Shown: positions 167 to 45,347, counted from the first letter of the stretch. The stretch: DNA of 47,156 nt from a virus (IMGVR_UViG_3300048892_000092:1-47156), one strand, 5' to 3'. Notes: generated by a model not told the origin, from the letters alone. Numbers and translations are program-made.

Positions 167-446
167 CCTCGCCAAGCTCGCCGTTCAGGTTCTCGATGAA
201 CGTGAGCACCTCGGCGGTGCGGCTGGCGCTGGTTCTCCGCTCCCGCTTCTTGTACGTGCGCTTCTCGACCGAGCCCGGGTCGAGCCGCTTGAGCACGAAC
301 TCGACGTCGCGCTTCGTCTCGCGCAGCGCCTCCAGCTCGCTGCTCACCGCCTCGATCTGCCGCTCGATCTCCTTCAGCTGCGCCTTCAAGGGTTCGCTGA
401 GCTGCTGCAGCTGCGCGCGAACGCCTGACTGTTCTACTGCATCCAT
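1..446 (-). CDS. Coiled-coil plus probable winged-helix protein (148 aa) spanning the circular junction
   Basis: Not in the ORF track. ATG at 446 after AAGGAGCAGGAA; MDAVEQSGVRAQLQQLSEPLKAQLKEIERQIE...MVRKAFIELHEQGLLRMTRTTSGGGKAYALVGHA. Its TAA is completed at 46990-46992 on circularisation. Confidence 0.8.
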   Translation of the reverse strand, partial: MDAVEQSGVRAQLQQLSEPLKAQLKEIERQIEAVSSELEALRETKRDVEFVLKRLDPGSVEKRTYKKRERRTSASRTAEVLTFIENLNGELGEDFGYTAVFKAMKDVKMAIGKEMVRKAFIELHEQGLLRMTRTTSGGGKAYALVGHA

Positions 447-20750: not shown

Positions 20751-23700
20751 ATGTCACCACCGCGCCGCCCACCGAAGGGCGGCAGGCGTCAGCCTGCCAA
20801 GAGCTTCTACGACAACCCGTTCGCCAAGATGGTCAAGCAGTACGCCGCCGCTCACCCGGCGGAAGCCAAGGCTGTCGCTGCAGCGAAGGCGGTGCCAAAG
20901 CCGCCGCCGAGCAAGCCGATGACGCAGCGCCAGAAGGACGAGGCCGCCGTCACCATGGGCAAGCTGCACCTGCTCCCGACCGACGTGGCGGCGGCGACGC
21001 CGTCGCTGTTCGGGACGAAGAAGGGCGACGTCAAACGGATCGCCACCCATGCGTTCGCGCACGCGCTCCCGACCGGGCCGCTGAAGCCGACGATCACCAC
21101 GCCGCCGACAGCGAAGGAGCAGGCAGCGACCCTGCACCAGCAGGCGACCTGGGCGCGCAACGTCGTCGTGCCCGGCAAGACGGGACAGAAGGCGCGCAAG
21201 CACTTCGTCGCCTCGCTCACCCCCGCGGAGCGGGCGGCGAAGCTGAGCGAGCAGGAGACCGACTACGCCGCGACCAAGGTCGCGACCGACGCGCAGACCT
21301 TCCACGCGCCCCGCTCCGACTTCGGGATCGGCGCCAACACCGACAAGCTCGCCGCGGCGGCGCACGCCGTGGCGGGGGTGACCAAGGCCGTCCTGCCCAC
21401 CGTCCACCGTGACCCGTTCACGCACCAGCCGGTGCTCGGCGCTCCCCCCGCCGCGATCGGCGCCGGGCACATCATCGGCGACATTGCCCACGGCGGCGCC
21501 GTCGAGGCCCCGGCGATCGGCAACTTCATCCTTCACCAGCAGCCGCTGAAGGGCGCGATCGACACCGCCCGCGCCGGGATCGCGGTCGCGCGCGGGGACA
21601 TCGGCGCACCGATCGCGAACGTCGCCGACGCGGTGCGCTCCGGGATCCACTCAGTGACCGGCCTCGGCCGTGCCGCGACCGAGATCGGGCAAGGGGACGT
21701 CGGCGGCGGGACACGGCTCGGGCTCAGCTCGGCGGCCGGGGCGGCGCAGGCCGGAGGGCTCGTCCCGCCCGGAGCGCTCGGACAGGTCGGCAGCCTCCCG
21801 ACTGACGTGCTCGGCGGGCTCGGCAAGGTCGCGGTCGGCACCGCCGCCTCGATCCCCGGCATGGGGGCGCATCCGATCCGCTCGGTCGACGAGGCAGTCG
21901 GCTTCATCCGCGGCGGCGGCGACGCGGCGATCGCGCTCGGTTTCCTGCTTCAGCCGAGCATCAGCAGCCACGACCGCAACCGCGTTTACAGCCAGCTCTT
22001 CCACGGGTTCGTGGACGACCTGATGAACAAGTACGGGCCCGGCGTGACCTGGAAGCAGGCGGTCAAGAACGGCTTCGACCAGCCGCTGATCCACGCTCTC
22101 GACGGGTTGGCGGTGGCCGCCCCGCTCGCGAAGAGCGCGTCGGTGATGCGCTACTGGAAGCTCCCCGGCGTCAGCTTCGAGGACGCGGTCAGGCTGTCGC
22201 GCGATCCGACCCGGCTCGGCGAGATCGCCCCCGGCGCCGAGGCGCCGCGCCCGTCGCGCACCGCCACGATCAGGGGCAAGAACATCGACCCCTACCAGGT
22301 GCCGCTGCATGAGTCGCAGAGCCCGCTCTGGCGCGGCATCACCCGCAACGTCGGCGACCCGCTCGCGCGTGGCGTCGAGAAGGTTGCCGGGCCCCGCTTC
22401 CCGCTCTCGGAGACGAAGAAGGGGCTGCGCGCGCAGACGCAGCTCTCCAAGCAGCAGGTGCGCCGCTACGCCGCGCAGGCGCACGCGCTGATGAACCAGG
22501 TCAACAGCTATCTCGGCAAGGAGCCGGAGCAGGGCGTGCGCCTGTTCCTCTCCCACCAGCGCCCCGCCGACATCCCCGAGGACGTGTGGCTGAAGGCGGC
22601 GCTGAAGAACACGCAGGACATGCTGGAGGAGGGCCCGGCGCAGGCCGCTCGCAAGCTGACTCCGCGCGAGCAGCAGCTGCTGCGGCAGGTGAAGGCGATG
22701 CGGGCGGGGGTCGACCGGCTCTCGCAGGAGCGCTGGGGGCGCCGCGTCGAGGACGTCTACCACGAACAGGAGCGTCTGCACCATTCGCTGCTCCTGAACG
22801 AGCACCACCTGAAGGGCGCCCGCGAGCGGCTACGCGCTGTCGAGGGCCCCGACGAGGCGGGCGTCTACACCGCCTCGATCTACAAGCTGCGCACCGATCG
22901 GCTCGCGCTGGAGCAGCAGCTGCAGAAGCTCGCGCCCGACGACCCGGAGATCCCGGTGATCCGCGGCGCGCTGCACCAGACGACCGAGCGCATCTCGGCG
23001 CTGGAGAGCGGCCGTGCGCATTCGCTGGAGCTGGGCGACGTCGCGAAGGGCACCAGGATCCAGGGCGCCCGCGACGACGTGCGCACGCTGGAGAACACGC
23101 GCAGCGCGCTGCAGGAGCAGCTCGACGCGCTGACCGTCGGCCAGGCGCCGGTCGAGTCGGAGATGCGCACCACCCTGATCAACCGGATGAACGAGCTGCC
23201 CGGCGTCAGTGACGAGGAGGCGGCGCATCTGACGAACCTGTTCGACACCTCGGCGCGACGCTGGGGCGATCACTTCAACCGCGACCCGGGCGAGTTCTAC
23301 AGCGACCCGACCGGCTTCGGGTTGAAGGAGATCAGGATGATCCAGGAGCACGCCGACGCGCAGCTACCCGAGGGGGTGCTCGCGCAGACCAGGACGTCGG
23401 CGATCGCGGCGAACGCCAACCGGATCGACCCCGAGGGCGCCTACCCGCGCAGCGACTCCGGCCGTCTCTATTACAACGATGAGCACCGCGGGCTCGTCGA
23501 GACGCTCGACCAGGCCGAAGTCGCCGACGTGGCGGCGAAGCGCGCCTATCCCGGCAAGGCCAACGCCGACCACCCGAAGCGAGTCGAGGCGAGGGACGCG
23601 CTCGCCAAGGCGCGCGAGGACGAGCTGTACGCCCGCATCTGGTACGGCTCGCGCGCCTCGAAGGGCCAGGTGCCGCGGGTGGCCGGACGGCGGGCGCTCG

Positions 23701-26700
23701 CCAACCGGCTGGTGGCCGCCTACAAGGGCCGGGTCGGGGCGCTCCCCTCTCGGGGCCGCACCCCGCGGGAGATGGAGCAGCTGATGGCGCTGCTCGACGA
23801 GTTGCGCATCCACGGCGAGTCGGGGCGGATGTGGTACGAGGATTCCGCCCGCGCGATCATGGAGCTGGCGGGGGGTGACAAGGAGCGGGCTGCTCAGATC
23901 GCCCAGCTGGTCGCGATCTACTCGCCCCAGAAGGCCGTGATCCCGAACATGGGCGAGGCGATCAAGGCCTACAACACCTGGCTGATGAAGCGGCCGATCG
24001 ACAACGGCCAGGACTGGCAGAAGGCCGCAGCGCAGCGTGTGCTCGACGGCGAGGGCGACTGGGACGGGCGGAAGACGAACAACTTCTACCGCAACTTCCT
24101 CGAAGACATCGACAAGGCGCGCTGGAAGAAGGAGCGGTATCTGACCAAGGCCGAGCAGCGCAAGGCGCTCGCCGACAACAAGATTTACAAGGGGCAGACC
24201 GAGCTGGGCGAGGTGACCGCCGACATGTGGATGGCCCGCGTGTTCGGCTACCTGCGCACGGGCGTGTCCGAGGGCCGCTATGACGTGATCGAGTCGGTGA
24301 CCAAGCAGATCGCGAAGGAGACCGGCTGGAAGCCGAAGCAGGTGCAGGCGGCGATCTGGACGGCGATCAAGGACAAGTCGGACGACGTCAGCGCCAACGT
24401 CGACTTCGCCGACGCGATCGGGCGCCACCACGGGATCGTCAACTACGAGACGGCGCCGGGCTCGACCTACGTCGGCCCCTTCAACGACGTTTACAAGGCC
24501 TGGGATCCCGAGACGCAGCAGGCGTTCCTCGCCGCCACCAGTCGCCCGATCGACCAGTTCCTGCAGGACGCCGGGGTTCTCCACCGCCGCAGCGAGTTCG
24601 GCCCCGGCATCTACGAAGGTGTCGCCTCACCGGGTGCGCGGCTGCGTCTGGTCGCGACGCGCGCCAGGGAGGATCCCTACACGGTCGACCCGACTCAGCG
24701 CGACATGTTCAACTACGTCGCCGCCTCGATCGGCCGGGCGACGTTGCAGAACTCTGTCGCCTGGGCGCGCGGCTTCCTGCCGACGGCGCTCAAGCACGCC
24801 GACACGATGGCGGTCTCGATCGGTCGGAGAGCCTCCGACGAGGAGGCGCTTCAGCTTCACCGGCTGCTCAACCCGGAGGGTCAGCCCACGCGGGTGTTCG
24901 TCGTTCACGCCGGGAACGAGGGCCTGCTGCTGCGCAAGGATCCCGGGCTCGCCGACGAGGTTTTCCCCAACCACCTGCCCGGCAAGCGCTACCATGAGAG
25001 TTTCCAGGGACAGGTCGAGACAGCGCTCGACCAGGTCTTCCCTGATGCTCCTCGCGACTTGCTCAGATCAGACGGGGAGCTGGTCGAGAACGACTGGTCA
25101 ACCGGAACGGAGGGTTACGACAATGCCATCGAAAGCGCGCTTGGCAACACAGGAGACGCTGAACAGGTTCTTCGGTTCAGGCAACTTGCTGATCGGCTCG
25201 CCAGTGACACCGCAGCCGTCAGAGACGAATTCGGCGCAGACTCCGCAGCAGCCGTCGAACGTCACGCCGACCTCGCCGGAGCCCGCAGCGCTGCCGCCCG
25301 AGGGCGAGCAGCCCGCCTAGAACAGAAGAGCGTCACCCCGCCCGCGCTGCTCTCCCAGACGCGCGGGCAAGACCTCTACGGCGCCGTCGAGTTCCTGCAC
25401 ACGCCGGAGGGGCAGCGGATTCTCCACCTCACCCAGCAAGCGGACGTCTCGACGCTGCTGCATGAGCTGTACGGGCACAACGTGCGCGAGATCGCCGCCG
25501 CCTACCCGGAGCAGTGGGCCCGCATCGAGGCCTTCGTCGGCAAGCCGCTCGCCGAGTGGGAGCCGGAGGATCATGAGCGCTTCGCTCGCTGGTCGGAGCG
25601 CTACTTCGCCGACGGCGTCGCGCCGACGCCGGAGCTGGTGCCGGTCTTCCAGCACCTGAAGCGCAGCTACCGCGAGACCTACGGGGCGATGAACCGGATC
25701 GGGCGCCCGCCGCCGCCCGAGGTGAAGGCCCTGTTCGACGAGATGTTCGGCTCCTACGACGACCCGAACGTGTTCCGGGTCGCGAACATGAGCACCTCGA
25801 TCCCGCACGACATGCGCTCTGCGGAGCAGCACGCGATCTTCGAGTTCACCTCCAAGCAGCTCGCCGACCTACGGCGCCGCAACGACGCGCGTGCCTACAG
25901 CCGCTCGATCGAGAAGCTGCAGAAGGACTACGAGAAGCAGGGGGAGAAGGCCGATGCGGCGGGCGGCTTCGACAACCTGAGCGAGGACGACCAGACCAAG
26001 ATGATCGCCACCCGCTCGCAGCTCTTGACGATGCAAGCGGAGAAGACGATGGCCGACGTCGACCGCGCCACCGGCCTGCGCCGCCGGGTCGAGCAGATCG
26101 AGGCGGCGCTCGCGAACCCGACCGGCCCCGCCTACGAGGGGGCGCTGGCGGCGCTCGGTCAGCTGACCGTGATGCGCGAGAACATCCTCAAGACGGTGTT
26201 CGGCGACAAGTACGACCCGGTGTTCGAGAACCGCGTCGACCTACTCGCCGACCACCTCGTCGACAAGGGGCTGATCGAGCCCGACTTCGCGCGCGGCACC
26301 GCCAAGTACGCGCCGCACATGCCGCTCGGCGGCAAGGAGCCGCGGCGGATCGACCGCCCGGCGCAGGGGCTGGAGGGCGGCGTGATCGGTCAGGTCGACC
26401 AGTCGCTGCTCGGATTGCACAACAAGAACAACCTCTACCGCTGGCAGAACGGCGATCTCTCCACCGACCCGAAGGTGATCTTCGACGTCTGGCAGAACGC
26501 GCAGGCGTTCGCGTTCATCAAGGAGATGAAGGATCTGTTGTTCGACATGGGACGGCCGCTTGGGCGCGACGAGCCGATCCCCGACAACGTGTTCCTGGTC
26601 AAGAAGGACGGCACCCCGGTGCCGCACGTCCAGAAGGTCGCGTCGGGGGTTGCCTCGACCGACGAGGTGCAGGACGCGCTCACCGCGCTGGAGGCGCGCG

Positions 26701-28430
26701 ACCCGGCCAAACTCGAGGAAGTCGTCACTCGCTACGTCGATGACACGTTCCTGAAGAGCGAGGACGTGCGCGCCTCGATCCAGGCCGCGGGGGCCGAGAG
26801 CGCCGACGCCGCGCTCGCCGCCCGCATGAAGCTCGACAACGTCCGCGTGATCGACCGCCACATCGTCGAGGGCCTGTTCCGCCCGCTCCGTGGCGGCACC
26901 TCGACCGCCAGCCGCGCCGTCGACTGGTCGAACACGGTCGCGCGCTGGAGCCTGATCTACACCAACCCGGCCTACATCCCGACCAACTTCATCGCCAACA
27001 ACTTCTACCTGCTCGCTCAACAGGGCCCGCTCGCCGTCGCCAACCTGACGCGCGCCTCGAAGATGCTCCTGAACGACAAGGAGTTCGCGATCAGGGTCGC
27101 GGGCGAGGGCGGCGAGCTGCCCGCCCAGGCGGCGATCGCGCGCGGGCGCGGAATCGGGCAGGGGCTGCGACAGCGCGAGGAGCGCTACCTGCGCAGAATC
27201 ACGGCGGTGCCCGACAAGCTGCCGCGGATGGCGGCCTGGGTGTACGAAGCCCGCCGCATGGGCTACAGGACGAAGGAGGACATGCTGCGGCTGATCGACG
27301 CGGAGCCGGGCACGGCGCTCGCTCGCAGACGCGACCTCGTCGCGCACCGCACGAACGAGATCATGGTCAACTTCGACCGGCTCTCCGACTGGGAGCGCCA
27401 GACCGTCACGAAGGTGCTGTTCATCTGGCCGTGGATCCGCGGCGCGACTGCCTGGCCGTTCTACTACGCGAAAGAGTTCCCGGTGCAGACGGCGATCGGC
27501 GCCAACCTCGGGCAGGTTGCCGAGGACAGGCGCAAGGCGATGATGGGCAACGTCCGCTCCGCGTACCGCGACCTATTCCCGATCACGAAGCACGGCCAGT
27601 TCGCGCGCACGATCAACGTGGGGGCGCTTTCGCCTACCTCGACCGCCGCCAGCTCGCTGCAGGCGATCCTCGACCTGGGCCGGATCAACGTGCCGAGCGA
27701 GCAGGGCTCGCGCGTGATGGACTTCTTCAACCCGCTCTGGCAGGGGATCACGCAGAACGTGACCGGCATGAACGACTACGGGCAGCCGATCTCGCACAAG
27801 GACGCGCTGTTCGACTCGGCTGTCAACTTCGTCCCCTTCGGCGGCATCATCCGCCAGGTGATCGACCCGACGAAGGCCTCGAAGGTCTACAACCGGCGCG
27901 ACTGGAAGGCGCTGCTCGAACGCCGCGTCGGCAGGGTGCTGCCGATGGAGGTCGACCTGAACCGGCTGCACGCCTTCCAGACCCAGAACGGGAAGAAGAC
28001 GACGCAGCAGCGGCTGGACGACAAGATGGCCTCGCTCGTCAAAAGCCGCAACAAGGTGGGCGGAACGATGCCGATCCCGAAGAGCGTCCGCCACGCGCTG
28101 CTGATCCAGACGATGTACGAGGAGGAGGTCGCGCGCCAGGAGCACGACCTCGGGCAGTCCTCCGACTGGCACCCGAAGCGGCCGGGCGCGCAGCCGACCT
28201 TGTCGCCGCTGCAGCGGGCCCGGGTTGTCTACTCGCTCTACCTCAAGACCTTCCCGACCGCTCGGGGGGTGCTGCCGCCACCTGAGCAGATCAACAAGAG
28301 CGGTCTCGACATCTACTCGGACGGCCTGCTGTACGGGAACGAGAGCGAGGGTTTCCCGCGTCAGGATGCGCTGCTCGGGCCGCTGCAGGAGTACCGCTCC
28401 GACCTCTCGAAGGAGAAGACCGGTGGCTGA
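20751..28430 (+). CDS. Giant polyvalent internal virion/ejection protein (2,559 aa)
   Basis: Last of the ejection genes; HhH-GPD-like segment (about 23.8-24.4 kb), zincin-like DVSTLLHELYGH (25.46 kb), C-terminal NPAYIPTNF...VNFDRLSDWE region. Confidence 0.75.
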   Translation: MSPPRRPPKGGRRQPAKSFYDNPFAKMVKQYAAAHPAEAKAVAAAKAVPKPPPSKPMTQRQKDEAAVTMGKLHLLPTDVAAATPSLFGTKKGDVKRIATHAFAHALPTGPLKPTITTPPTAKEQAATLHQQATWARNVVVPGKTGQKARKHFVASLTPAERAAKLSEQETDYAATKVATDAQTFHAPRSDFGIGANTDKLAAAAHAVAGVTKAVLPTVHRDPFTHQPVLGAPPAAIGAGHIIGDIAHGGAVEAPAIGNFILHQQPLKGAIDTARAGIAVARGDIGAPIANVADAVRSGIHSVTGLGRAATEIGQGDVGGGTRLGLSSAAGAAQAGGLVPPGALGQVGSLPTDVLGGLGKVAVGTAASIPGMGAHPIRSVDEAVGFIRGGGDAAIALGFLLQPSISSHDRNRVYSQLFHGFVDDLMNKYGPGVTWKQAVKNGFDQPLIHALDGLAVAAPLAKSASVMRYWKLPGVSFEDAVRLSRDPTRLGEIAPGAEAPRPSRTATIRGKNIDPYQVPLHESQSPLWRGITRNVGDPLARGVEKVAGPRFPLSETKKGLRAQTQLSKQQVRRYAAQAHALMNQVNSYLGKEPEQGVRLFLSHQRPADIPEDVWLKAALKNTQDMLEEGPAQAARKLTPREQQLLRQVKAMRAGVDRLSQERWGRRVEDVYHEQERLHHSLLLNEHHLKGARERLRAVEGPDEAGVYTASIYKLRTDRLALEQQLQKLAPDDPEIPVIRGALHQTTERISALESGRAHSLELGDVAKGTRIQGARDDVRTLENTRSALQEQLDALTVGQAPVESEMRTTLINRMNELPGVSDEEAAHLTNLFDTSARRWGDHFNRDPGEFYSDPTGFGLKEIRMIQEHADAQLPEGVLAQTRTSAIAANANRIDPEGAYPRSDSGRLYYNDEHRGLVETLDQAEVADVAAKRAYPGKANADHPKRVEARDALAKAREDELYARIWYGSRASKGQVPRVAGRRALANRLVAAYKGRVGALPSRGRTPREMEQLMALLDELRIHGESGRMWYEDSARAIMELAGGDKERAAQIAQLVAIYSPQKAVIPNMGEAIKAYNTWLMKRPIDNGQDWQKAAAQRVLDGEGDWDGRKTNNFYRNFLEDIDKARWKKERYLTKAEQRKALADNKIYKGQTELGEVTADMWMARVFGYLRTGVSEGRYDVIESVTKQIAKETGWKPKQVQAAIWTAIKDKSDDVSANVDFADAIGRHHGIVNYETAPGSTYVGPFNDVYKAWDPETQQAFLAATSRPIDQFLQDAGVLHRRSEFGPGIYEGVASPGARLRLVATRAREDPYTVDPTQRDMFNYVAASIGRATLQNSVAWARGFLPTALKHADTMAVSIGRRASDEEALQLHRLLNPEGQPTRVFVVHAGNEGLLLRKDPGLADEVFPNHLPGKRYHESFQGQVETALDQVFPDAPRDLLRSDGELVENDWSTGTEGYDNAIESALGNTGDAEQVLRFRQLADRLASDTAAVRDEFGADSAAAVERHADLAGARSAAARGRAARLEQKSVTPPALLSQTRGQDLYGAVEFLHTPEGQRILHLTQQADVSTLLHELYGHNVREIAAAYPEQWARIEAFVGKPLAEWEPEDHERFARWSERYFADGVAPTPELVPVFQHLKRSYRETYGAMNRIGRPPPPEVKALFDEMFGSYDDPNVFRVANMSTSIPHDMRSAEQHAIFEFTSKQLADLRRRNDARAYSRSIEKLQKDYEKQGEKADAAGGFDNLSEDDQTKMIATRSQLLTMQAEKTMADVDRATGLRRRVEQIEAALANPTGPAYEGALAALGQLTVMRENILKTVFGDKYDPVFENRVDLLADHLVDKGLIEPDFARGTAKYAPHMPLGGKEPRRIDRPAQGLEGGVIGQVDQSLLGLHNKNNLYRWQNGDLSTDPKVIFDVWQNAQAFAFIKEMKDLLFDMGRPLGRDEPIPDNVFLVKKDGTPVPHVQKVASGVASTDEVQDALTALEARDPAKLEEVVTRYVDDTFLKSEDVRASIQAAGAESADAALAARMKLDNVRVIDRHIVEGLFRPLRGGTSTASRAVDWSNTVARWSLIYTNPAYIPTNFIANNFYLLAQQGPLAVANLTRASKMLLNDKEFAIRVAGEGGELPAQAAIARGRGIGQGLRQREERYLRRITAVPDKLPRMAAWVYEARRMGYRTKEDMLRLIDAEPGTALARRRDLVAHRTNEIMVNFDRLSDWERQTVTKVLFIWPWIRGATAWPFYYAKEFPVQTAIGANLGQVAEDRRKAMMGNVRSAYRDLFPITKHGQFARTINVGALSPTSTAASSLQAILDLGRINVPSEQGSRVMDFFNPLWQGITQNVTGMNDYGQPISHKDALFDSAVNFVPFGGIIRQVIDPTKASKVYNRRDWKALLERRVGRVLPMEVDLNRLHAFQTQNGKKTTQQRLDDKMASLVKSRNKVGGTMPIPKSVRHALLIQTMYEEEVARQEHDLGQSSDWHPKRPGAQPTLSPLQRARVVYSLYLKTFPTARGVLPPPEQINKSGLDIYSDGLLYGNESEGFPRQDALLGPLQEYRSDLSKEKTGG
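25123..25320 (+). CDS. Candidate nested +1-frame gene inside the giant protein (65 aa)
   Basis: GGAGG at 25109-25113, ATG at 25123; codon bias switches to this frame. Confidence 0.5.
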   Translation: MPSKARLATQETLNRFFGSGNLLIGSPVTPQPSETNSAQTPQQPSNVTPTSPEPAALPPEGEQPA

Positions 28431-31767: not shown

Positions 31768-33021
31768 TCAGGCCAGCGAGCCGAACCCGACCGTCGCCAT
31801 CGAAGCGAGCAACGCCTCGTCCTCCTGCGCGTCCCCGTAGGAGTGCGCGTACTCCTTCACGAACGTCGCGACCGTGTGACCCATCCAGCGGGCGGCGACG
31901 GTCACGGGCACCGGAGGATCGGCCTGCGCCATCAGCGACGCGACCGAGTGGCGCAGATCGTGCGGGACGATGTGGCCGAGCCCGGCGTTGATCCCGGCGC
32001 GTTGCACGCCGCGCGGGCGGAAGTTCACCGGGTCGATCGGCTTGCCGCTCGCGGTCGCGAACACGAACTCGTCGTCCTCGGGCTGGCGGTCGTGCTCGGC
32101 GACGAACAGCCGGTACTGCTCCTCCAGCGCCGCGTGCGCCGCGTCGAACATGCTCATCGTCCGCTTCGACGCCTTGCTCTTCACCTTCGCCCGCGTTTTG
32201 TCCGTGACGCCCGTCGCGGCCCGCTGCTTGCTGATCGTGATCCGCCGCTCGACGAGCGAGACGTCGCCCCAGGTCAGGCCGCACAGTTCGCTGATCCGGC
32301 AGCCGGAGAAGCAGAGCACCGTCAGCGGCAGCCGGTAGTTCTCGGGGCAGGCCTCGATCAGCTTACGCAGCTCGTCGGGGCGCAGGATCCGCGGCTCGCC
32401 CTTCTCGGAGCGTTCCGTGGGGACGACGTCGTCGCGATCGAGCCCGTCGAACGGGTCGACGAAGATCACGCCCTCCTTCAGCGCCAGCTTGATCATCTTG
32501 CGCAGCGGCGTCAGTGAGCCCATCACCGTCCAGTTCGTCATCGGCGTGCCGTAGCGCGACGTGCGCTCGCTCATCGCCGCGATGTAACGGGCGATCATGC
32601 GGTCGGTGATCGTGTTGATCTTGCGGCTGCCGCGGAAGTACGGCTCCAGGTAGTTGCGGTACGAGTTGCGGTAGCTGCGGATCGTGTTGTCGGCGCGATC
32701 CTCGCGCTGCACCTTCGCCTCCAGGTCGGCGAAGAACTTGGCCGCGATCTCGTCGAGCGTGGCCGTGCCGCCCGCGAGCGGCGTGCCGCCCTCGTCGCGG
32801 TTCGCCGTCGCCTTCTTCCAGGCGGTGATCGCTTCCTTCTCGGTCTTCACAGGCGTCTGCGTCTTCGGGTAGCAGATCGTGCCCGACGTGTCGACGTTGT
32901 TCTGCGAGAGCTTCAGCTCCCAGACGACGTCCGTTGCCCGGCGCCGCCACCAGAGCCCGGGGTACTTGTCGCCGTCGACTCGGCCTCGGCGCTTCGTGGG
33001 GTCATACACTGCTGTTGACAT
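31768..33021 (-). CDS. int: Tyrosine integrase
   Basis: SGCRISELCGLTWGDV, HDLRHSVAS, WMGH, EYAH catalytic residues. Confidence 0.95.
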   Translation of the reverse strand: MSTAVYDPTKRRGRVDGDKYPGLWWRRRATDVVWELKLSQNNVDTSGTICYPKTQTPVKTEKEAITAWKKATANRDEGGTPLAGGTATLDEIAAKFFADLEAKVQREDRADNTIRSYRNSYRNYLEPYFRGSRKINTITDRMIARYIAAMSERTSRYGTPMTNWTVMGSLTPLRKMIKLALKEGVIFVDPFDGLDRDDVVPTERSEKGEPRILRPDELRKLIEACPENYRLPLTVLCFSGCRISELCGLTWGDVSLVERRITISKQRAATGVTDKTRAKVKSKASKRTMSMFDAAHAALEEQYRLFVAEHDRQPEDDEFVFATASGKPIDPVNFRPRGVQRAGINAGLGHIVPHDLRHSVASLMAQADPPVPVTVAARWMGHTVATFVKEYAHSYGDAQEDEALLASMATVGFGSLA

Positions 33022-38598: not shown

Positions 38599-39291
38599 AT
38601 GTCCGCCCTCGCAGAGCACGTCGAGCGGGTGAGGCTGCTGCTCGGCTCGATGAACGACTGGGTGCCGACGCCGGTCGACCCGATCGAACCAGACTCCGGC
38701 CCGGCCGCGAGCCGCTACGTGCCGTGCGAAACCTGTCGCTCCCGCGGCGAGGTGCGCACGCGCGGCGGCTGGACACTCTGCCTCGGCTGCGACGGTGAAG
38801 GCTGGCGCCGCCGCGAGCCCGGCGAGCGGCCGTGGGACAGGTACCTGGAGCTGCCGCTGGACGAGGCCGTGAGCCTGCCTGTGACGCGCCCGAAGGCCGG
38901 TCGGGCCCAGACCTCACCCGAACCGGAGATGTTCGTCTGGGAGCGCGTGAAGGCCACCTACGACCGCCACGGCAGCTACCGGCAGATGCGGGGCGCGCTC
39001 GACTGGCTGTCGCTCCGGCACCCTCGCCGTTACCGGCTGGTGCGCACCGTGCTCGTCGACCACGAACCGCGCGCGCTCGACGAGCCCGCCCGCGTCGACC
39101 TCGATCTCGGCGTGCTGATGATCGCGCTGCGCGTGCGGACGGTGCGCGTACCGCCCTGGCTGGTCGAGCGGACGGCGGCCGACGAGCGCCGCGACGCGAT
39201 CCTGGAGCTGGCGGCGATCGGGCTTACGGCCGGGGAGATCGCCCGGCGCACGGGCATCCCGCGTGGCACGGTACGCAAACGGCTGCGTTGA
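38599..39291 (+). CDS. Zn-finger plus C-terminal HTH protein (possible late transcription regulator)
   Basis: CETCRSRG...CLGCDGEG; GLTAGEIARRTGIPRGTVRK; AGGAGG SD. Confidence 0.7.
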   Translation: MSALAEHVERVRLLLGSMNDWVPTPVDPIEPDSGPAASRYVPCETCRSRGEVRTRGGWTLCLGCDGEGWRRREPGERPWDRYLELPLDEAVSLPVTRPKAGRAQTSPEPEMFVWERVKATYDRHGSYRQMRGALDWLSLRHPRRYRLVRTVLVDHEPRALDEPARVDLDLGVLMIALRVRTVRVPPWLVERTAADERRDAILELAAIGLTAGEIARRTGIPRGTVRKRLR

Positions 39292-39366
39292 TAGGATCTC
39301 GCCATCCCGGTCACCCGTCTCGGGCTGAAAAGGGAACTCGACGGCGCCAGCGTGTCCGATTTTCCG

Positions 39367-39717
39367 ATGAGGGTGCTCGTCTGCGGCTCGCGCAGCTGGC
39401 GCGACAAGGAAGCGATCGCGCGGCGGTTGAAGAGCCTGCCCGCCGACGCGATGATCGTGACCGGCGGCGCGCTCGGCGCCGATCAGCTCGCCGACGACGT
39501 CGCCCGCGACCTCGGCCTGGAGCGCGTGATCATCCCGGCGAACTGGAACCGGCACGGCAGACAGGCGGGGATCCTGCGCAACCTGCGCATGCTCGATACC
39601 CGGCCGGAGCTGGTGCTCGCGTTCTGGAACGGTGACTCGCCCGGGACGAAGCACACGATCGGTGAGGCGCGCAAGCGCGGCATTCGGGTCGAGGTCATTC
39701 AGGTCGAGAACGAGTGA
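39367..39717 (+). CDS. SLOG-family (DUF2493/YspA-like) protein
   Basis: RVLVCGSRSW...VTGGALGAD...AGILRNLRML...LAFWNGDSPGTKHTI. Confidence 0.85.
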   Translation: MRVLVCGSRSWRDKEAIARRLKSLPADAMIVTGGALGADQLADDVARDLGLERVIIPANWNRHGRQAGILRNLRMLDTRPELVLAFWNGDSPGTKHTIGEARKRGIRVEVIQVENE

Positions 39718-39739
39718 CTCCACCGGAGATGGTGGAGGA
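39718..39739. terminator. Hairpin between convergent genes
   Basis: CTCCACC-GGAGAT-GGTGGAG. Confidence 0.5.
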
Positions 39740-39745
39740 TCCTCC

Positions 39746-39901
39746 TCAGTGCGTGTGCGCGAGCGCGTCCTGGCAGGCGATCTGGATGTCTTCCAGAACG
39801 AGCCAGGGGTCGGCGTCGGCGTCATCGTTGGCTGCCTCGACCATCCGAACGATGCGTAGCAGCATCTGCTCGTACAGGGTGATCGTGTCGGCGGCGTTCA
39901 T
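39746..39901 (-). CDS. Small acidic protein (51 aa), array cargo
   Basis: MNAADTITLYEQMLLRIVRMVEAANDD...; ATGA overlap. Confidence 0.6.
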   Translation of the reverse strand: MNAADTITLYEQMLLRIVRMVEAANDDADADPWLVLEDIQIACQDALAHTH

Positions 39902-40092
39902 GAGTGCTCTTCCAGGCGCGTGATGCGCTCGCCGAAGGCGATCAGGACGCCCTCGATCCGGTCGAGGCGCGTGTCGATGCGATCGAGCACACGGTCGATC
40001 GAGTCGAGCGCGCGCACGACCCAGAACGTCTGGATCCCGACCAGGCCGAACAGCCCGGCCAGGATCGTGATCGTTCCTACGGTGGTGCTCAT
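39898..40092 (-). CDS. TM plus coiled-coil protein (64 aa), array cargo
   Basis: Preceded by a repeat unit; LDRIDTRLDRIE heptads. Confidence 0.75.
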   Translation of the reverse strand: MSTTVGTITILAGLFGLVGIQTFWVVRALDSIDRVLDRIDTRLDRIEGVLIAFGERITRLEEHS

Positions 40093-40135
40093 GTTCCTCC
40101 TTGGTTGACCGAGGACGAGACTAGCTCGTCCCCCT

Positions 40136-40327
40136 CTAACGGAGCAGCAGGTAGCCGACGCCCGCGACGGCGCCGATCCAGAGCCACGACCCGACGAGGA
40201 ACAGCGGGAAGACGAGCCACTCGGGCAGTCGCTCCCACCAGTTCGAGTCGTCGAGGCGGGTGAGCACGATCGCGGCGGGGACGCCGATCGCGACGGCGAA
40301 CAGCGCGATGATCACGATGTTGCTCAT
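40136..40327 (-). CDS. Two-TM membrane protein (63 aa), array cargo
   Basis: MSNIVIIALFAVAIGVPAAIVL...WLVFPLFLVGSWLWIGAVAGVGYLL. Confidence 0.7.
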   Translation of the reverse strand: MSNIVIIALFAVAIGVPAAIVLTRLDDSNWWERLPEWLVFPLFLVGSWLWIGAVAGVGYLLLR

Positions 40328-40596
40328 GACTTCTTCCTCGCCTTGTTCCAGCGCTCGATGTCGACGCGCCGCCAGACCGGCCCGGAGGCCAGCTCGGCGA
40401 TCGGGACGGGCAGCTTGTTGCGCGAGCGCATCGAGCGCAGCAGCCCTCGCTCGATCCCGGTCAGCGCCGAGGCCTCGACGAGGCCGACCAGCGGCGCCTC
40501 GACGGGCTCCTCGACGGCGGTCGCGAGGCGGTCGAGCTGCTCGGCGCACTCGTCCAGCTCGCGCCGGATGCGCCGCAGCTTCTCTGCGGTGTTCAT
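40324..40596 (-). CDS. AlpA/MerR-like HTH DNA-binding protein, array cargo
   Basis: LVGLVEASALTG...RNKLPVPIAELASGPVWRRVDIERW. Confidence 0.75.
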   Translation of the reverse strand: MNTAEKLRRIRRELDECAEQLDRLATAVEEPVEAPLVGLVEASALTGIERGLLRSMRSRNKLPVPIAELASGPVWRRVDIERWNKARKKS

Positions 40597-40641
40597 GTTC
40601 CCTCCTTTGGTGGTTGACCGAGAGCGCCTCGCGGCGCCCCC

Positions 40642-40929
40642 TCAGAACACGACGAGGTCTTCGTCGTACAGGTGGATCGGGTAGGCCGTGCCGCACGGAT
40701 CCGTGTGGCGGAATTCGGGGTCGTCGGTGAAGTCGACCGCGCAGCGCGCGATGTACTTGACCGTGCCGACGTGCCCCTGCAGGGCCTCGATGCGGTAGGT
40801 GTTGTTGCCGCAGCCGTCGCACTGCTCGGCGCCGATGAAGCCGCCGACGAGACCGGCGAGGTCGTCGATGTTCTCGGCGACGAAGTGCGGCGGGTCGATC
40901 GAGCGCGGCTGGAATGCACGAACTGACAT
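40642..40929 (-). CDS. Cys-containing hypothetical protein (95 aa), array cargo
   Basis: CDGC...C...CG; preceded by a repeat unit. Confidence 0.75.
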   Translation of the reverse strand: MSVRAFQPRSIDPPHFVAENIDDLAGLVGGFIGAEQCDGCGNNTYRIEALQGHVGTVKYIARCAVDFTDDPEFRHTDPCGTAYPIHLYDEDLVVF

Positions 40930-40965
40930 GGTTCCTCCTTGTGTTTGGTTGACCGAGAGAGCGCG

Positions 40966-41118
40966 TCAGCGCTCCCCCTCTTGCAGCAGGTACTCGACGC
41001 ACGGCTCGCACAGGCAGCGCGTCCACGTCCCCGGCCGCTCGAACCAGCACCACGACCGCTCGGTGAAGTGGCTGCAGTGCTCGCAGCGCTTGCGCCCGGC
41101 GACGAGCTGCCAGGCCAT
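40966..41118 (-). CDS. Zn-finger micro-protein (50 aa), array cargo
   Basis: CEHC...CLCEPC; TGATG coupling. Confidence 0.65.
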   Translation of the reverse strand: MAWQLVAGRKRCEHCSHFTERSWCWFERPGTWTRCLCEPCVEYLLQEGER

Positions 41119-41318
41119 CAGACGCGGGTGGCCGGGAACGTTTCGAGCACCGCCGAGTACTTGCTGGTCGGGTTGCCCGTCGTCAGCCAGACGCTGTTCG
41201 CGCGCATCCGATCGGCGCGCTCCTGGGCCAGCTTGCGGGCCGCGGCGATGTCGTCCCCGACCGAGATGATCTCGGACAGATGCCCGGTCAGGACTGACCG
41301 GGTGGCGATGTACAGCAT
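41118..41318 (-). CDS. Hypothetical protein (66 aa), array cargo
   Basis: Preceded by a repeat unit. Confidence 0.7.
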   Translation of the reverse strand: MLYIATRSVLTGHLSEIISVGDDIAAARKLAQERADRMRANSVWLTTGNPTSKYSAVLETFPATRV

Positions 41319-41351
41319 GTTTCCTCCTTGTGGTTGACCGAGGTGCGGCCG

Positions 41352-41585
41352 TCAATGACGGCCGCACTGGCAGTCAGCCTGCGTGGTGCAAGCCGCCGCC
41401 TGGAAAGCGAAGAAGTCGTCCACGATCTCGTTCATCGCGGACAGGGCCTCGGCCTTCTCGACCGAGCGAAACTCGCGGCAATCGCAGCCGCGGATGCAGC
41501 AGGCGAACGTCTCGCCTGCCGGGTTGTGGGACACGATGGCGTGCCCACAGGTGCAGTAAATGTTCCCGCTCTTCAACGGGATCAC
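41352..41585 (-). CDS. Cys/His-rich protein (77 aa), array cargo
   Basis: CTCGH...H...CCIRGCDC...CQC; GTG after a repeat unit. Confidence 0.7.
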   Translation of the reverse strand: MIPLKSGNIYCTCGHAIVSHNPAGETFACCIRGCDCREFRSVEKAEALSAMNEIVDDFFAFQAAACTTQADCQCGRH

Positions 41586-41611
41586 CTCCCTTTGGTTGAC
41601 CGAGGTGCGCG

Positions 41612-41791
41612 CTACTGGAGCGCGTACCCCTCCTCGACGAGCGCGGCGACGATGTCGCCGACGTAGCGCGGCTCGACGACAAGCGCGCCGCCGAACCAGG
41701 TGCCGTCGGTGTGCTCGATGAGCCACGCTTGCACGTCGTCGGTGTGCGGCCGGATGAGCATGATCGAGCCGTGGTTCTCGATGTCGAACAT
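41612..41791 (-). CDS. Hypothetical protein (59 aa), array cargo
   Basis: MFDIENHGSIMLIRPHTDDVQAWL...VEPRYVGDIV; not in the ORF track. Confidence 0.7.
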   Translation of the reverse strand: MFDIENHGSIMLIRPHTDDVQAWLIEHTDGTWFGGALVVEPRYVGDIVAALVEEGYALQ

Positions 41792-42036
41792 CAGCTGGCC
41801 CTCGACAGGTCGATCCCGACCATCATCGCGTGCAGGAAGTCGGCGATCTCGCGCTTGCTCCCGGCCGTGATCGTGCGCAGGCAGGCGTCGAAATGGCCTT
41901 CGCTGTTGACGCTGTACTCGTCGAGCGCGACGTAGCCGTTGCGCTGCTCGACGACGACGCTCCGACCGCTGCCGAGCAGGCGGCGGTTGACGTTGATCGC
42001 ACGCTCGTTGAGCGTGACGATGTTGATCCGTTCCAT
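41791..42036 (-). CDS. Hypothetical protein (81 aa), array cargo
   Basis: Preceded by a repeat unit. Confidence 0.75.
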   Translation of the reverse strand: MERINIVTLNERAINVNRRLLGSGRSVVVEQRNGYVALDEYSVNSEGHFDACLRTITAGSKREIADFLHAMMVGIDLSRAS

Positions 42037-42068
42037 GATTCCTCCTTGTGTTGGTTGACCGAGGAGCG

Positions 42069-42410
42069 CTAGATGCGCTCCTCCCTCCGTGCCGGGAGCC
42101 CGATGTAGGCGTCCGGGCTCGACGAGCTGGCGACGACCTCTCGCGCCGTCTGCTCGCTGACCTCGCGGGCGCCGATCAGGCCGCTGGCGAGGCGCGGAAT
42201 GACGTACCCGTCGAGCGTCCAGCCGTGGTCGTCGTAGCCGCCGATCACGTAGAACGTGGTGGTGCGGATGATCGGCTTGGACGTGCCGTCCCAGCCGTAC
42301 TGCTTCGACTCTGCGCCCTCGCCGAGGACGGCGAAGTTGGCGGGCAGGTAGGCGGCGACTTCCTCGCGGCGCCGGGCGCCGGAAACGAATGCGAAGCGTG
42401 CATCACTCAT
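42069..42410 (-). CDS. Hypothetical protein (113 aa), array cargo
   Basis: VAAYLPANF...GYDDHGWTLDGYVIPRLASGL; ATG after a repeat unit. Confidence 0.75.
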   Translation of the reverse strand: MSDARFAFVSGARRREEVAAYLPANFAVLGEGAESKQYGWDGTSKPIIRTTTFYVIGGYDDHGWTLDGYVIPRLASGLIGAREVSEQTAREVVASSSSPDAYIGLPARREERI

Positions 42411-42454
42411 GATTCCTCCTTGGTGGTTGACCGAGCGCCCCGTGGGCGCCCTCC

Positions 42455-42715
42455 TTACCTCGCGTCGATGACGCGGCCGACGGCCTCGTACGCGATGTCC
42501 GAGATGTCGGTGGCCTTGACGTTCGCCCACTGCTCGGAGTCGAGCAGGCGGGCGGCGACGACCTCGGTCGCGTTCAGCTGGAGCCCGTCGAGGTCGTCGA
42601 TGTGGTCGTTCGTGAGCCCGTTGACGGCGCTCGCGGCGAAGCTGTCGATGCGACTGCGCCAGGCGATCTCCAGGCCGGTGACGTTCTGTTCGTATGCGAT
42701 CTCGCGATCCTGCAT
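42455..42715 (-). CDS. Acidic hypothetical protein (86 aa), array cargo
   Basis: MQDREIAYEQ...; Asp/Glu-rich. Confidence 0.75.
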   Translation of the reverse strand: MQDREIAYEQNVTGLEIAWRSRIDSFAASAVNGLTNDHIDDLDGLQLNATEVVAARLLDSEQWANVKATDISDIAYEAVGRVIDAR

Positions 42716-42768
42716 GGTGTTCCTCCTTGGGTTGGTTGACCGAGGAAGGCGCCGTGGGCGCCTCCTCC

Positions 42769-42909
42769 CTACCGCCGTGCCTGAACCTGCCGCTGCCCGC
42801 GGACGTTGTCCCGCAGGGCGCTGCGGACGTGCTCGCGCTCGCGCTCGGGCCACAGGCGTGCGAAGTGGCGCCGGAAGTGCGCGAGCGACCGTGCCTCGCT
42901 GTCGCTCAT
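42769..42909 (-). CDS. Arg-rich micro-protein (46 aa), array cargo
   Basis: MSDSEARSLAHFRRHFARLWPERERE...; lies between two repeat units. Confidence 0.65.
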   Translation of the reverse strand: MSDSEARSLAHFRRHFARLWPEREREHVRSALRDNVRGQRQVQARR

Positions 42910-42953
42910 CGTTCCTCCCTAGTGGTTGACCGAGCACCCTCGCGGGTGCCCTC

Positions 42954-43202
42954 CTAGACGAAGCTCAGGTTGAGCGGGTCGATGCCGTGCTCGACGGCGA
43001 GCGCCTTGCCCGCGTCGGTGAAGATGGCGAACGTGCAGCCCTCATCGACGAAGGTCTCGATCAGGCCGAGCTTCTTCAGGTGCGTGAGGTTGCCGCGCTG
43101 CCCGGCCGAGACCGTGACGAGCGGCGTGCCGCTCCAGTTCGAGGCGTCCTCGGCGAGGCCGAGGAACAGGTCGAGCGAGTCAGGCGTCAGTTCGATGTTC
43201 AT
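42954..43202 (-). CDS. Winged-helix-like protein (82 aa), array cargo
   Basis: RGNLTHLKKLGLIET...IFTDAGKALA. Confidence 0.75.
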   Translation of the reverse strand: MNIELTPDSLDLFLGLAEDASNWSGTPLVTVSAGQRGNLTHLKKLGLIETFVDEGCTFAIFTDAGKALAVEHGIDPLNLSFV

Positions 43203-43245
43203 GATTCCTCCTAGTGGTTGACCGAGGAGCGCGATGCGCTCCCCC

Positions 43246-43533
43246 TCAGACCCGGACGGTGCGGGTGACGCCGTTGTCGTAGGTGACCTCGGCGAACACG
43301 TTCCCGGCCTTGGTGACGCGGACGACGCGGCCGTCGTAGCGCTTGCCGTGCCGGTGGACGGCGACGGTGTCGCCGACCTTGACGAGGCCGGTCGACGTGG
43401 CGCTGATCGCGCCGTGGAAGTGCTCGGCGCACTCGCCGAACGCCTCGCCGCGCGAGCCGGTGAAGCTGTAGACGGCGGGCTTGCCGCAGGTGCCGCCGAC
43501 GGCGGTGCGGACGGTGCAGGTAGTAGCAGCCAT
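43246..43533 (-). CDS. Zn-finger plus SH3/KOW-like protein (95 aa), array cargo
   Basis: C...CGKPA...CAEH; VKVGDTVAV...GRVVRV. Confidence 0.75.
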   Translation of the reverse strand: MAATTCTVRTAVGGTCGKPAVYSFTGSRGEAFGECAEHFHGAISATSTGLVKVGDTVAVHRHGKRYDGRVVRVTKAGNVFAEVTYDNGVTRTVRV

Positions 43534-43581
43534 GGTGATTCCTCCGTTCGTTGGTTGACCGAGGCGCCGTCCGGCGCCCCC

Positions 43582-43770
43582 TCAAATCTCGTCCAGCCGC
43601 ACCCGCGACGTGTGGACGTTGTCGCCCTCGACGTCGGTGGACGCAGCGACCGTGACGTTGAACTGGCCGTAGACGCGAAGCGCCCCGGCCAGGTTCTCGG
43701 CCTGAGTCTCGGTGCGGTCGGTGGCGACGATCTCGCCCGTGCTCGCGTTGTAGACCGTGAACTTCAGCAT
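43582..43770 (-). CDS. Hypothetical protein (62 aa), first array cargo
   Basis: MLKFTVYNASTGEIVAT after a repeat unit. Confidence 0.7.
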   Translation of the reverse strand: MLKFTVYNASTGEIVATDRTETQAENLAGALRVYGQFNVTVAASTDVEGDNVHTSRVRLDEI

Positions 43771-44211
43771 GATGTGCTCCTCTGGTTGGTTGACCGACAG
43801 GGCCGCGTGAGCGGCCCCGCCAATGAGGGAGGCGGAAGCGACAGCTCGGTGACCGCATCCGGTCACCTCGCCCCACCCTTTCGACCTGTGACCGCGGCAA
43901 CGCATCCGAGTCCAGGTCGACGCCGTGAGGCGTCCTCACTGTCGTGAGTCATCAGGGTCAAGCTCGGAGCGCCGGGGTGAAGCACCGCGGCCCTCTTGGA
44001 GGAGGATCCTCCACCGGCCCTCGTACCCGGCCTCTGCAACCGAGTCCCCCTGGCCCGACGTGCGACCTGGTGAGCTTCTCCAGTGGAGCCGGAGGGCGAT
44101 ACTCCCTCTCAGACGGCCTCGGCGCTAGCCCGGCCTCGTTGCGACTGACCCCGGCCCGTTCGGCCGATCGAGAGCAAGGTAGCAGCCAGCAGCAAGGAGG
44201 CGCAACAGTCT

Positions 44212-44946
44212 GTGACAGATATCCCCCAGATGGGTCAGGAGATCGAGCCCAAGGTCGAGGCGCCCGAGGAGCGAAATCTTGAAACCGCGCCCAGCGCCAT
44301 CGAGCAAAACCCAGCAGCAGAGCCAAGCACTAACGTAGGTAGCGACCAGGTAGCAGCGATTCCATCCGAAGAGCCACCCCGCGAAGGCACGCTCGCCTGG
44401 CTGCAACAACAGCCACACGTCGACGTCCTCGGGCTCAGCCTCCCTCACTGCCACCGCGTCCCCGAAGGCAGCACACTCGCCGAGGCCAACGGCTACTGCA
44501 GGATCGTCACGCAGCGCGGACGCTGCCGTGCTCCGGCCACTCGCTTGTACGGCATCTGCGTCGTCCACGCTGGAGGAGGAGGCGCCACAGACCCCGAAGC
44601 TCTGCGGCGCATGAGCGCCAAAGGCCACGCCGCCAAGACAAGGCTCAGAATCCAGAGGCAGACACTTGGCATAGGCCCGAACAGGGTCGGGAACCCGAGG
44701 GAACATGCCAGGATTCAAGCCATGGCGAGGGCCGAGCGGCTGGCCGAAGCCTTGCTGGCGCCGCTCGACGACGAGGCCCTCAGCAGCCTCGCGCAGCAGC
44801 GCGCCGCCGTGACCGTGCTCGACGCGACTTTCCCTCTGCAGCAGGCCACGGTCGAGCTGGAGCTACCGGCCGAGGAGGCGGGCGTGCAGGCGCTCGGCTG
44901 GGAGCAGATGCAGGCCCTCGCAGCAAGGCTGCTCGACGAGCAGTAG
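44212..44946 (+). CDS. terS: Probable terminase small subunit (CCCH/HGG-type Zn finger)
   Basis: C-x8-C-x10-C-x2-HAGG, then a helical region ending in a TVELE strand; AAGGAGG SD. No other TerS candidate was seen. Confidence 0.55.
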   Translation: MTDIPQMGQEIEPKVEAPEERNLETAPSAIEQNPAAEPSTNVGSDQVAAIPSEEPPREGTLAWLQQQPHVDVLGLSLPHCHRVPEGSTLAEANGYCRIVTQRGRCRAPATRLYGICVVHAGGGGATDPEALRRMSAKGHAAKTRLRIQRQTLGIGPNRVGNPREHARIQAMARAERLAEALLAPLDDEALSSLAQQRAAVTVLDATFPLQQATVELELPAEEAGVQALGWEQMQALAARLLDEQ

Positions 44947-44966
44947 CCCTGACCAGGCCCTGACCA
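44947..44966 (-). repeat. Two further TGGTCAGGG arm-type repeats
   Basis: CCCTGACCA at 44947 and 44958, with the same 11-bp period as attP. Confidence 0.75.
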
Positions 44967-45347
44967 AGTCCCGCAAAGCCAGTGATAGAGCCAAGCGCAG
45001 CGTGACCTGATACAGCGCGAGCAGCATGCTGAGGCGTGCATGCCCAGGCACAGAGCCAAGGGCAGAGGAGCGAGCAGGCAGGGCGTGAGCGTCGAGGCAG
45101 AGAGGAACGTGCCGTGTTCCTTACCGAGGGCCGAAGGCCCTCTCAGGCGGGCGGGGGGCCGCCCTCCCCGCCGCGCGAGCGATCGACCGCGGGGCCCTTT
45201 TCCGGGCCCCAGCCCGGCCGAACATGGGGTCTCCCGGCTTGTTCACGGGGCCCTGTTACGTAACACGCGGGGCCTTCTCGGGGGGCCTGATTCGTTACTC
45301 ACACGTCCGACTTCGTGACGAATCGTCACGCGAGGGGGAATCGTCAC

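Follow-up and report, generated by a model that had tools for sequence, protein, structure and literature searches.

A single hammerhead-like core, encoded in a conserved leader upstream of an array of small phage genes, probably cuts the array's internal sites, a prediction that rests on the complementarity between the core's substrate-binding arm and a motif repeated throughout the array. The array lies on the minus strand of IMGVR_UViG_3300048892_000092, a whole virus record of 47,156 bp that is referred to below as the window. An earlier note, made from the sequence alone, had delimited a cassette-like array of tiny genes at 40093-43818, each unit headed by a variable GC-rich hairpin and an invariant motif, and this description is borne out. 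TCGGTCAACCA occurs in 12 exact minus-strand copies, every one preceded by a GC-rich hairpin and followed by a GGAG(G) Shine-Dalgarno (SD) sequence and a start codon, and 14 matches are found at one mismatch or fewer, compared with a mean of 0.54 and a maximum of 2 in shuffled sequences. Eleven copies read CTC↓GGTCAACCA, the arrow marking the predicted cut, and the first copy has GTC in place of CTC. The 30 nt preceding each site fold with minimum free energies of -13 to -23 kcal/mol (z scores of -1.6 to -5.7, with 200 mononucleotide shuffles each). The components of the array, all on the minus strand, are as follows.

43787-43797, 43552, 43215, 42923, 42733, 42424, 42052, 41593, 41331, 40946, 40611 and 40102-40112: exact copies of TCGGTCAACCA
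40102-43585: eleven internal units, each with hairpin, C-U-C↓GGUCAA, C/A spacer and SD; 11 of 11 fully cognate to the leader
43560, 43223, 42931, 42741, 42432, 42060, 41601, 41339, 40954, 40619 and 40110: internal cuts, 5′ of the G, as predicted from the sequence
39746-43770: 16 small genes (gene calls) of 46-113 amino acids in 12 units, one or two in each

Motif scans of viral and metagenome contigs yielded 26 non-redundant arrays including that of the window; together they comprise 142 units, and their 196 proteins fall into 113 clusters. Four chance loci (L139, L140, L141 and L213) and 16 duplicates were dropped before the units were counted. Alignment of the DNA upstream of the first units exposed the sequence UUGACC-CUGAUGA, followed about 70 nt on by CGAAAGG. 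These elements make up a hammerhead core lying 30-170 nt upstream of the extent given in the earlier note, and the repeated motif is complementary to the core's arm. While the array itself stands, its boundaries had been drawn too narrowly, as the conserved, structured leader at approximately 44006-43825 (minus strand) is also part of the feature. From 5′ to 3′ on the minus strand, the leader and the first site contain the following elements.

43998-44006: anti-SD-like tract UCCUYCUCC, some 40 nt upstream of the core, (nearly) invariant in a 10-leader alignment; a predicted extra substrate-binding arm if transcribed
43967-43995: hairpin P0, flanked by the tract and the pseudoknot strand; predicted at -5.6 to -18.2 kcal/mol in each of 13 folded leaders
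43963-43968: pseudoknot strand 5′ of stem I, pairing with loop II at 43905-43910 (10 leaders)
43956-43961: stem I enzyme arm UUGACC, complement of every unit's GGUCAA; arm variants are mirrored in whole arrays
43949-43955: core nucleotides C3-A9, CUGAUGA, invariant in the 10 aligned leaders
43919-43948: abutting hairpins A (43935-43948) and B (43919-43934) between A9 and G10.1, with 100% of cells paired
43883-43918: stem II (G10.1-C11.1; 43913-43918 with 43883-43888) and loop II, 100% paired, with two-sided change in 4 of 5 pairs
43877-43882: G12-A13-A14-A15.1, then G15.2-G15.3; GAAAG in 13 leaders, GAAUG in 3
43825-43876: the leader's own stem III, which ends in CCCUC without a following GGUCAA (in the close relative L277, GGUCAA follows CCCUC directly)
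43787-43824: an extra 29-nt hairpin, standing between the leader's own CCCUC and GGUCAA, and site 1, G-U-C↓GGUCAA, with a predicted cut between 43796 and 43795; G16.2 mismatches G15.2

As in hammerhead ribozymes, C3-A9 lies directly 3′ of the stem I strand; G10.1-C11.1 is invariant, and G12-A13-A14 follows stem II. Across 16 leaders the first core segment reads CUGAYGA, N7 being C in L265, L650 and L667. When positions 43786-44010 of the window were folded with RNAfold, stem I (formed by the arm and site 1), an unpaired CUGAUGA, the two hairpins, stem II, an unpaired GAAA and stem III emerged unprompted, and none of 200 shuffles was equally stable (z score, -4.65). Over the aligned leaders, 94% of 204 helix cells are paired and 16 of 21 pairs show two-sided change, a result matched by 0 of 500 shuffles and compared with 29-40% paired in slid controls, although the helices were read from the same leaders in which they were scored and are therefore favoured over the slid controls, two of the 10 rows are close relatives, and the controls are generous. 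The pseudoknot comprises 4-12 bp in 10 leaders, averages 8.6 with a leader's own loop as opposed to 3.5 with the loops of other leaders, and shows two-sided change in 5 of 6 pairs, making it a covarying tertiary contact between stems I and II. The proximal stem III pair, 15.2-16.2, does not vary, and the window's own first site is mismatched there. The RNAalifold structure behind covariance model R1 mispaired stem I, and that model was used for searching only. Between A9 and G10.1 all leaders carry an insertion of 26-162 nt with two hairpins, in which two-sided change affects 4 of 5 pairs of hairpin A and 3 of 5 of hairpin B; one leader (L271:1541-1879, minus strand) bears a structured 135-nt insert in the loop of hairpin B. 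From the geometry of such junctions we infer that, if the four-way junction is perfect and hairpins A and B stack on each other, stem II would remain stacked on the core.

Judged by their sequences, the units carry only the substrate half of a hammerhead, N-U-H↓GGUCAA, and the core resides only in the leader. No CUGANGA occurs within 120 nt 5′ of any site in the window, and across 16 arrays with a leader only 3 of 16 stray CUGANGA copies lie within that distance of a site. Candidate sites were defined as R-R-U-C-A accompanied by an SD, a start codon and a hairpin. Among 121 internal candidates in the 16 arrays, 110 show complete pairing to the leader of the same array (15.1, 15.2 and five positions in stem I) together with H at position 17, counts that are not independent inasmuch as L604 and L277 overlap the window's units. 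Leaders of changed specificity were retrieved by searches with the core fixed and the arm free and with a covariance model, such that compensatory changes in arm and core were found without conditioning on the changed base. In L563 the arm UUGAUC accompanies 13 C-U-H↓GAUCA sites, 12 of them internal, and in L265, first retrieved by 71% capsid identity and then by the covariance model, the arm UUGACU accompanies nine internal C-U-C↓AGUCAU sites. L191/L605, L612 and L667 have GAAU for GAAA and sites of the form C-A-H; the 15.1-16.1 pair is thereby A-U in 13 leaders and U-A in 3 with matching sites. U15.1-A16.1 is a natural hammerhead variant, slower but active (PMC3088659). Coordinated change of leader and array thus extends to at least three different positions, although the leader tree did not resolve and the three GAAU cases may be one event. 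In an enzyme-by-array matrix, each variant leader suits only its own array class, and in 11 of 11 arrays the most frequent 5-mers preceding SDs, counted blind to the arm, spell out its complement. Across 120 distinct sites the sequence logo reads C (98%), U (95%), then C, U, A or G at 85, 10, 4 and 0%, followed by GGUCA(A). The absence of G at position 17 (0 of 120) fits the NUH rule for the base before the cut (PMC8495972). The earlier proposal that a polycistron is processed gene by gene thus gains support from the complementarity between core and sites, with an RNA, overlooked at the time, as the likely agent.

Complementarity of this kind could also arise if the leader paired with the units and was a poor or dead catalyst, serving instead as an antisense or scaffold RNA that gates translation via the arm and the anti-SD tract. 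We consider this unlikely. It would account equally well for the covariation of arm and sites, sits comfortably with the atypical insertion in the core, and draws on the conserved anti-SD tract, which is predicted to pair with the SDs after all 12 sites (duplexes of -11 to -15.5 kcal/mol). Similar energies are obtained with many upstream hairpin arms, which have GGAGG in the 5′ arm, and any anti-SD tract would score so; as an extra binding arm, the tract may be taken as a lead only. An antisense or scaffold role leaves without a reason the invariance of C3-A9, G12-A14 and G10.1-C11.1, the ban on G at the unpaired position 17 and the covariation of 15.1-16.1 inside the core geometry.

Several observations weigh against cleavage, in addition to the limits on the leader alignment, the counts and the GAAU cases given above. 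According to Eckert et al. (PMC10085705), insertions between A9 and G10.1 do not exceed 1-2 nt in any known hammerhead, a rule that the two hairpins break; in CChMVd (chrysanthemum chlorotic mottle viroid) a single extra A or U is tolerated there and C or G is harmful (PMC3705267). We regard this atypical insertion as the main risk to the activity of the predicted ribozyme. Because stem II does not begin within 1-2 nt of A9, the leader is classed as a hammerhead-like variant and not as a standard member, and Rfam hammerhead models gave no match in window 39000-45000 (E≤5) or in nine loci (gathering score). The stem I duplexes are weak (-4.4 to -6.4 kcal/mol), position 6 is often mismatched (GAUCAC/G, GGUCAC, AGUCAU), and positions 16.1 and 16.2 are predicted to be paired within the unit hairpin in 67 of 92 units and would need opening. 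Eleven of the 121 internal candidates are non-cognate, not all of which were inspected. Perfect C-U-C↓GGUCAA matches also occur beyond the array, within sense-strand genes at 13168 (+), 19895 (+) and 37616 (-), and these could represent off-array targets.

In most leaders the first site departs from the internal pattern. In the 12 leaders compared they read CUU in five, UUC in one, GUC in two (the window and L265) and CUC in two, with UUA also occurring; the first site of L612 has a G-U wobble in stem I and that of L191 is CAU. CUU, UUC and UUA are cut more slowly. In both the window and L265, the internal sites match G15.2 and the adjacent first site does not. The internal sites have therefore not been copied from the first one. 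These odd first sites suggest, at the level of sequence, that self-release of the leader is delayed, and the better fit of the internal sites to the core in two phages argues against passive homogenisation.

Such homogenisation underlies another alternative, in which the hammerhead would cut its own first site only and the internal motifs, never cut, would serve as joints for DNA recombination and be kept uniform by gene conversion from the first site, in the manner of the promoter early stem-loop (PeSL) cassettes of T4-like phages. Units are indeed gained and lost in relatives exactly at the motif, as the earlier note had anticipated, and two of them (both minus strand) are missing with precise boundaries from a near-identical phage.

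42733-42922: unit 4, 190 bp, absent in near-identical phages (G004/L039), with 12 letters shared on both sides of the joint
40615-40949: unit 10, 335 bp, absent in near-identical phages, with 10 letters shared at the joint

The unit 4 joint is present in DNA contigs of runs X13 and X16 and the unit 10 joint in those of X10 and X16 (three of four runs in all), and other contigs keep unit 4. Homology-block ends fall within -12 to +30 of a site in 23 of 52 cases versus 13% expected, a figure inflated by the shared motif and SD. Shared gene families stand in differing order between arrays, and concerted evolution could spread a changed base through an array. Against recombination joints that are never cut, uniformity is confined to the bases that pair with the core, whereas the hairpin, the spacer, 16.3 and 17 vary; first sites are often unlike the internal ones they would have seeded and are non-cognate in the window and L265; and exchanges also occur off the motif, with other block ends falling between the genes of two-gene units. 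We therefore judge restriction of cleavage to the first site to be quite unlikely. No dedicated recombinase was found, and microhomology-mediated exchange is the simplest reading of the gain and loss of units; the 10-12 shared bases would supply the microhomology at the DNA level, as a secondary role of a motif that we take to be primarily a cleavage site.

The unit hairpins themselves point to recognition as RNA, and of the two options raised in the earlier note, RNA or single-stranded DNA, it is the former that is favoured: among 131 hairpins, the sense strand has 25 GNRA and 10 cUUCGg loops, compared with 5 and 1 on the antisense strand. The loop classes alone are informative in this regard, since the asymmetry of G-U and A-C is weak (38 versus 28) and the more stable fold is the sense one in 76 hairpins and the antisense one in 54. 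The reported overlap of hairpins with the upstream stop codon is likewise seen in relatives, 55 of 116 complete units having a stop whose end falls within the hairpin loop or next to it, 8-14 nt ahead of the site, so that translation may affect access to the site.

The hairpin and GGUCAA, whether as RNA or as single-stranded DNA, might instead be recognised by a phage or host protein, such as an RNase, an RNA-binding protein, the integrase or the helix-turn-helix (HTH) protein of the array, and the conserved HTH gene of family F01, which lies close to the end of most arrays (12 arrays), and the tyrosine integrase at 31768-33021 would be natural candidates. The motif, however, changes in step with the RNA arm and not with any protein tested, and we find protein recognition very improbable. 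In G001, a complete relative (terminase, 84%), the same locus is occupied by small genes and the HTH gene but has neither leader nor array, which speaks against the suggested binding by integrase or HTH proteins and indicates that the system is not universal in the group. In G001, GTCAGAACC occurs three times before SDs of small genes (L258:2858, 3900 and 4146, plus strand), below a long structured region at approximately 2650-2890. With some 6-12 bp, the unit stems are on the short side for RNase III, and the comparison with RNase III sites found no support. The comparison with integron attC sites also failed. In attC, paired inverse core and core sites close the stem; in the folds of the units, GGTCAA lies outside the hairpin and is not paired to an inverse core. 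An integron array would further call for an adjacent IntI, which is missing, the window's one integrase being 8 kb away. Single-stranded DNA sites of the IS200/IS605 or oriT type were considered and rejected, given that Pfam and PHROG scans showed no HUH protein and that no conserved guide lies 5′ of the hairpin.

The least probable of the readings considered here makes the units terminator/promoter cassettes or hairpin promoters of the N4 type. The layout resembles that of PeSLs (PMC2839356), and in L287 (minus-strand units 6-7), L276 and L288 two units have a sigma-70-like -10 hexamer that replaces the hairpin just before the motif. In the window, though, no sigma-70 promoters occur at the units and no U-tailed terminators in 39300-44600, and a promoter scan of 5.3 kb gave one promoter-like match, which lies inside a gene. 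The N4 comparison made in the earlier note is not supported: the stable loops are on the sense strand, and the 2559-amino-acid protein of the window (20751-28430, plus strand; not folded), considered as a possible virion RNA polymerase, shows no RNA polymerase motifs and no corresponding Pfam or PDB match. This protein matches only DUF7178 and two PHROG families of unknown function and has no PDB relative.

Apart from a weak excisionase/HTH-like match for the gene at 40324-40596, the window's array genes have no informative family. A 59-amino-acid family (window 41612-41791, minus strand) recurs in 13 of the 26 arrays with varied neighbours and has atlas matches to unnamed viral clusters only, and 79 array proteins from relatives matched only ArdC, an HTH and DUFs. 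One array unit (L557:6809-7885, plus strand) encodes a full ArdC anti-restriction protein (ArdcN and MPTase-PolyVal), a hint at the anti-defence nature of some of the cargo. On three other contigs, L286 (about 190-370, plus strand), L281 and L296, a gene-less unit of about 150 nt stands between two site-like motifs and is a candidate for a small RNA that two cuts would free; no leader was found on these short contigs.

The window derives from a tailed, probably temperate phage, judging from terminase, portal, capsid and endolysin-like matches and from the tyrosine integrase, which has ordinary phage integrase domains and an excisionase-like HTH gene beside it; a PD-(D/E)XK nuclease gene is also encoded. 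TGGTCAGGG is repeated at 31482, 31493, 31667, 31678 and 1716 (plus strand) and at 44955 and 44966 (minus strand), and its copies, which occur in pairs beside the integrase gene and close to the array, are possibly integrase arm-type sites. A 17-nt inverted repeat on the palindrome GGAGGATCCTCC (39729-39748 and 44001-44019) brackets the whole array; the palindrome is not kept in other leaders. More than half of the array's sequence words are present in 20 DNA runs from soil, root or rhizosphere. Annotated phages gave short matches only (one Gordonia phage gene and others), none across the motif system. A motif scan of GTDB, covering 26 of 64 parts, returned no array among at least 120 loci listed, and in 401 genomes of the class Thermoleophilia the core pattern gave only chance-looking matches, which were not folded singly, and the conserved flanking protein had no match.

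In the mechanism we favour, a single leader ribozyme would dock on every C-U-H↓GGUCAA site and cut the polycistron into one- or two-gene mRNAs. Docking would pair the arm UUGACC with GGUCAA (6 bp) and A15.1, G15.2 and G15.3 with the unit's (C)CU (2-3 bp), thereby swapping out the end of the leader's own short stem III, and in the 67 units noted above it would also have to displace the base of the unit hairpin. The loop II pseudoknot would lie wholly within the enzyme strand, while further binding may come from the anti-SD tract. The predicted upstream product is an RNA ending in a closed hairpin with a 2′,3′-cyclic phosphate, and the predicted downstream product begins with 5′-OH GGUCAA shortly before the SD. 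Both kinds of end would slow decay. Re-pairing of CCUC within its own hairpin would help release, and delayed self-release may let the tethered ribozyme cut distal sites; finishing fragments that have already separated would need true turnover in trans. We put forward only tentatively, at somewhat less than even confidence, the larger claim of a natural, multiple-turnover, trans-acting small ribozyme, in which the freed leader would be a programmable endonuclease (stem I plus anti-SD arm) acting on separate RNA molecules, any cassette with nine matching bases would be processed, and the inserted hairpins would form a new four-way junction on the hammerhead core. For such a leader, matching sites in further mRNAs, of the phage or of its host, might be targets as well, and rejoining of ends might yield circular or shuffled messages.

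Discontinuous hammerheads reportedly occur in nature, in the bipartite form that Martick is said to have described in 2008 from the 3′ untranslated regions of mammalian CLEC2 genes, and the engineered trans-cleaving split is that of Haseloff and Gerlach, the I/III format. In the bipartite hammerhead, as here, enzyme and substrate halves lie apart on one transcript, but one enzyme half serves one substrate half (PMC6765202), whereas in the phages one core has up to 13. Engineered trans-cleaving hammerheads likewise have an enzyme strand that carries the core, stem II and the tertiary contact, and short arms that favour release (PMC6155905, PMC3064770); unlike the phage system, they are artificial. 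The closest parallel in setting is provided by the clustered prophage hammerheads of Perreault et al. (2011; PMC3088659), which share hammerhead chemistry between small phage genes, the proposed processing of a polycistron into single-gene mRNAs, the stem I/II pseudoknot and U15.1-A16.1, but have a whole cis ribozyme at each junction, whereas each array described here has a single core and, at its junctions, just N-U-H and the stem I strand. The topology of the pseudoknot hammerhead of PMC11300833 differs from that of the leader. PeSLs (PMC2839356, PMC4122927) are also hairpin-bearing intergenic repeats before small variable genes, with indels and shuffling at the repeats, but they comprise a sigma-70 promoter and a terminator, whereas the phage array lacks a promoter consensus and its repeat is complementary to a ribozyme arm. 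RNase P, too, is a natural RNA enzyme acting on many separate sites, but it is large, protein-assisted and hydrolytic, reads tRNA shape and has an unrelated fold (PMC6765202).

Natural small nucleolytic ribozymes are described as acting exclusively in cis (PMC6155905), reviews mention one bipartite hammerhead beside such cis action (PMC6155905, PMC6765202, PMC8495972), and a natural small ribozyme that cleaves in trans has been sought, with the function of ribozymes in bacteria and phages described as an open question (PMC6155905, PMC6765202). The full-text literature searched, whose coverage excludes most subscription papers and supplementary sequence lists, reports hammerheads between phage genes as complete cis ribozymes only, and no paper in it describes a single hammerhead serving many sites that lack a core. 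If the reading proposed here is true, one RNA that cuts a long message into single-gene messages would represent a new mode for a natural small ribozyme, and a core with up to 13 sites to serve would amount to a natural processing enzyme made of RNA alone, for which four naturally orthogonal specificities would already be available. A large insertion at A9 would then be compatible with the hammerhead core, and since present search patterns do not allow for one, further ribozymes of this kind are probably being overlooked. For the phages themselves, nine bases would suffice to make a cassette both processable and exchangeable, and the array of accessory genes would stay plug-and-play.

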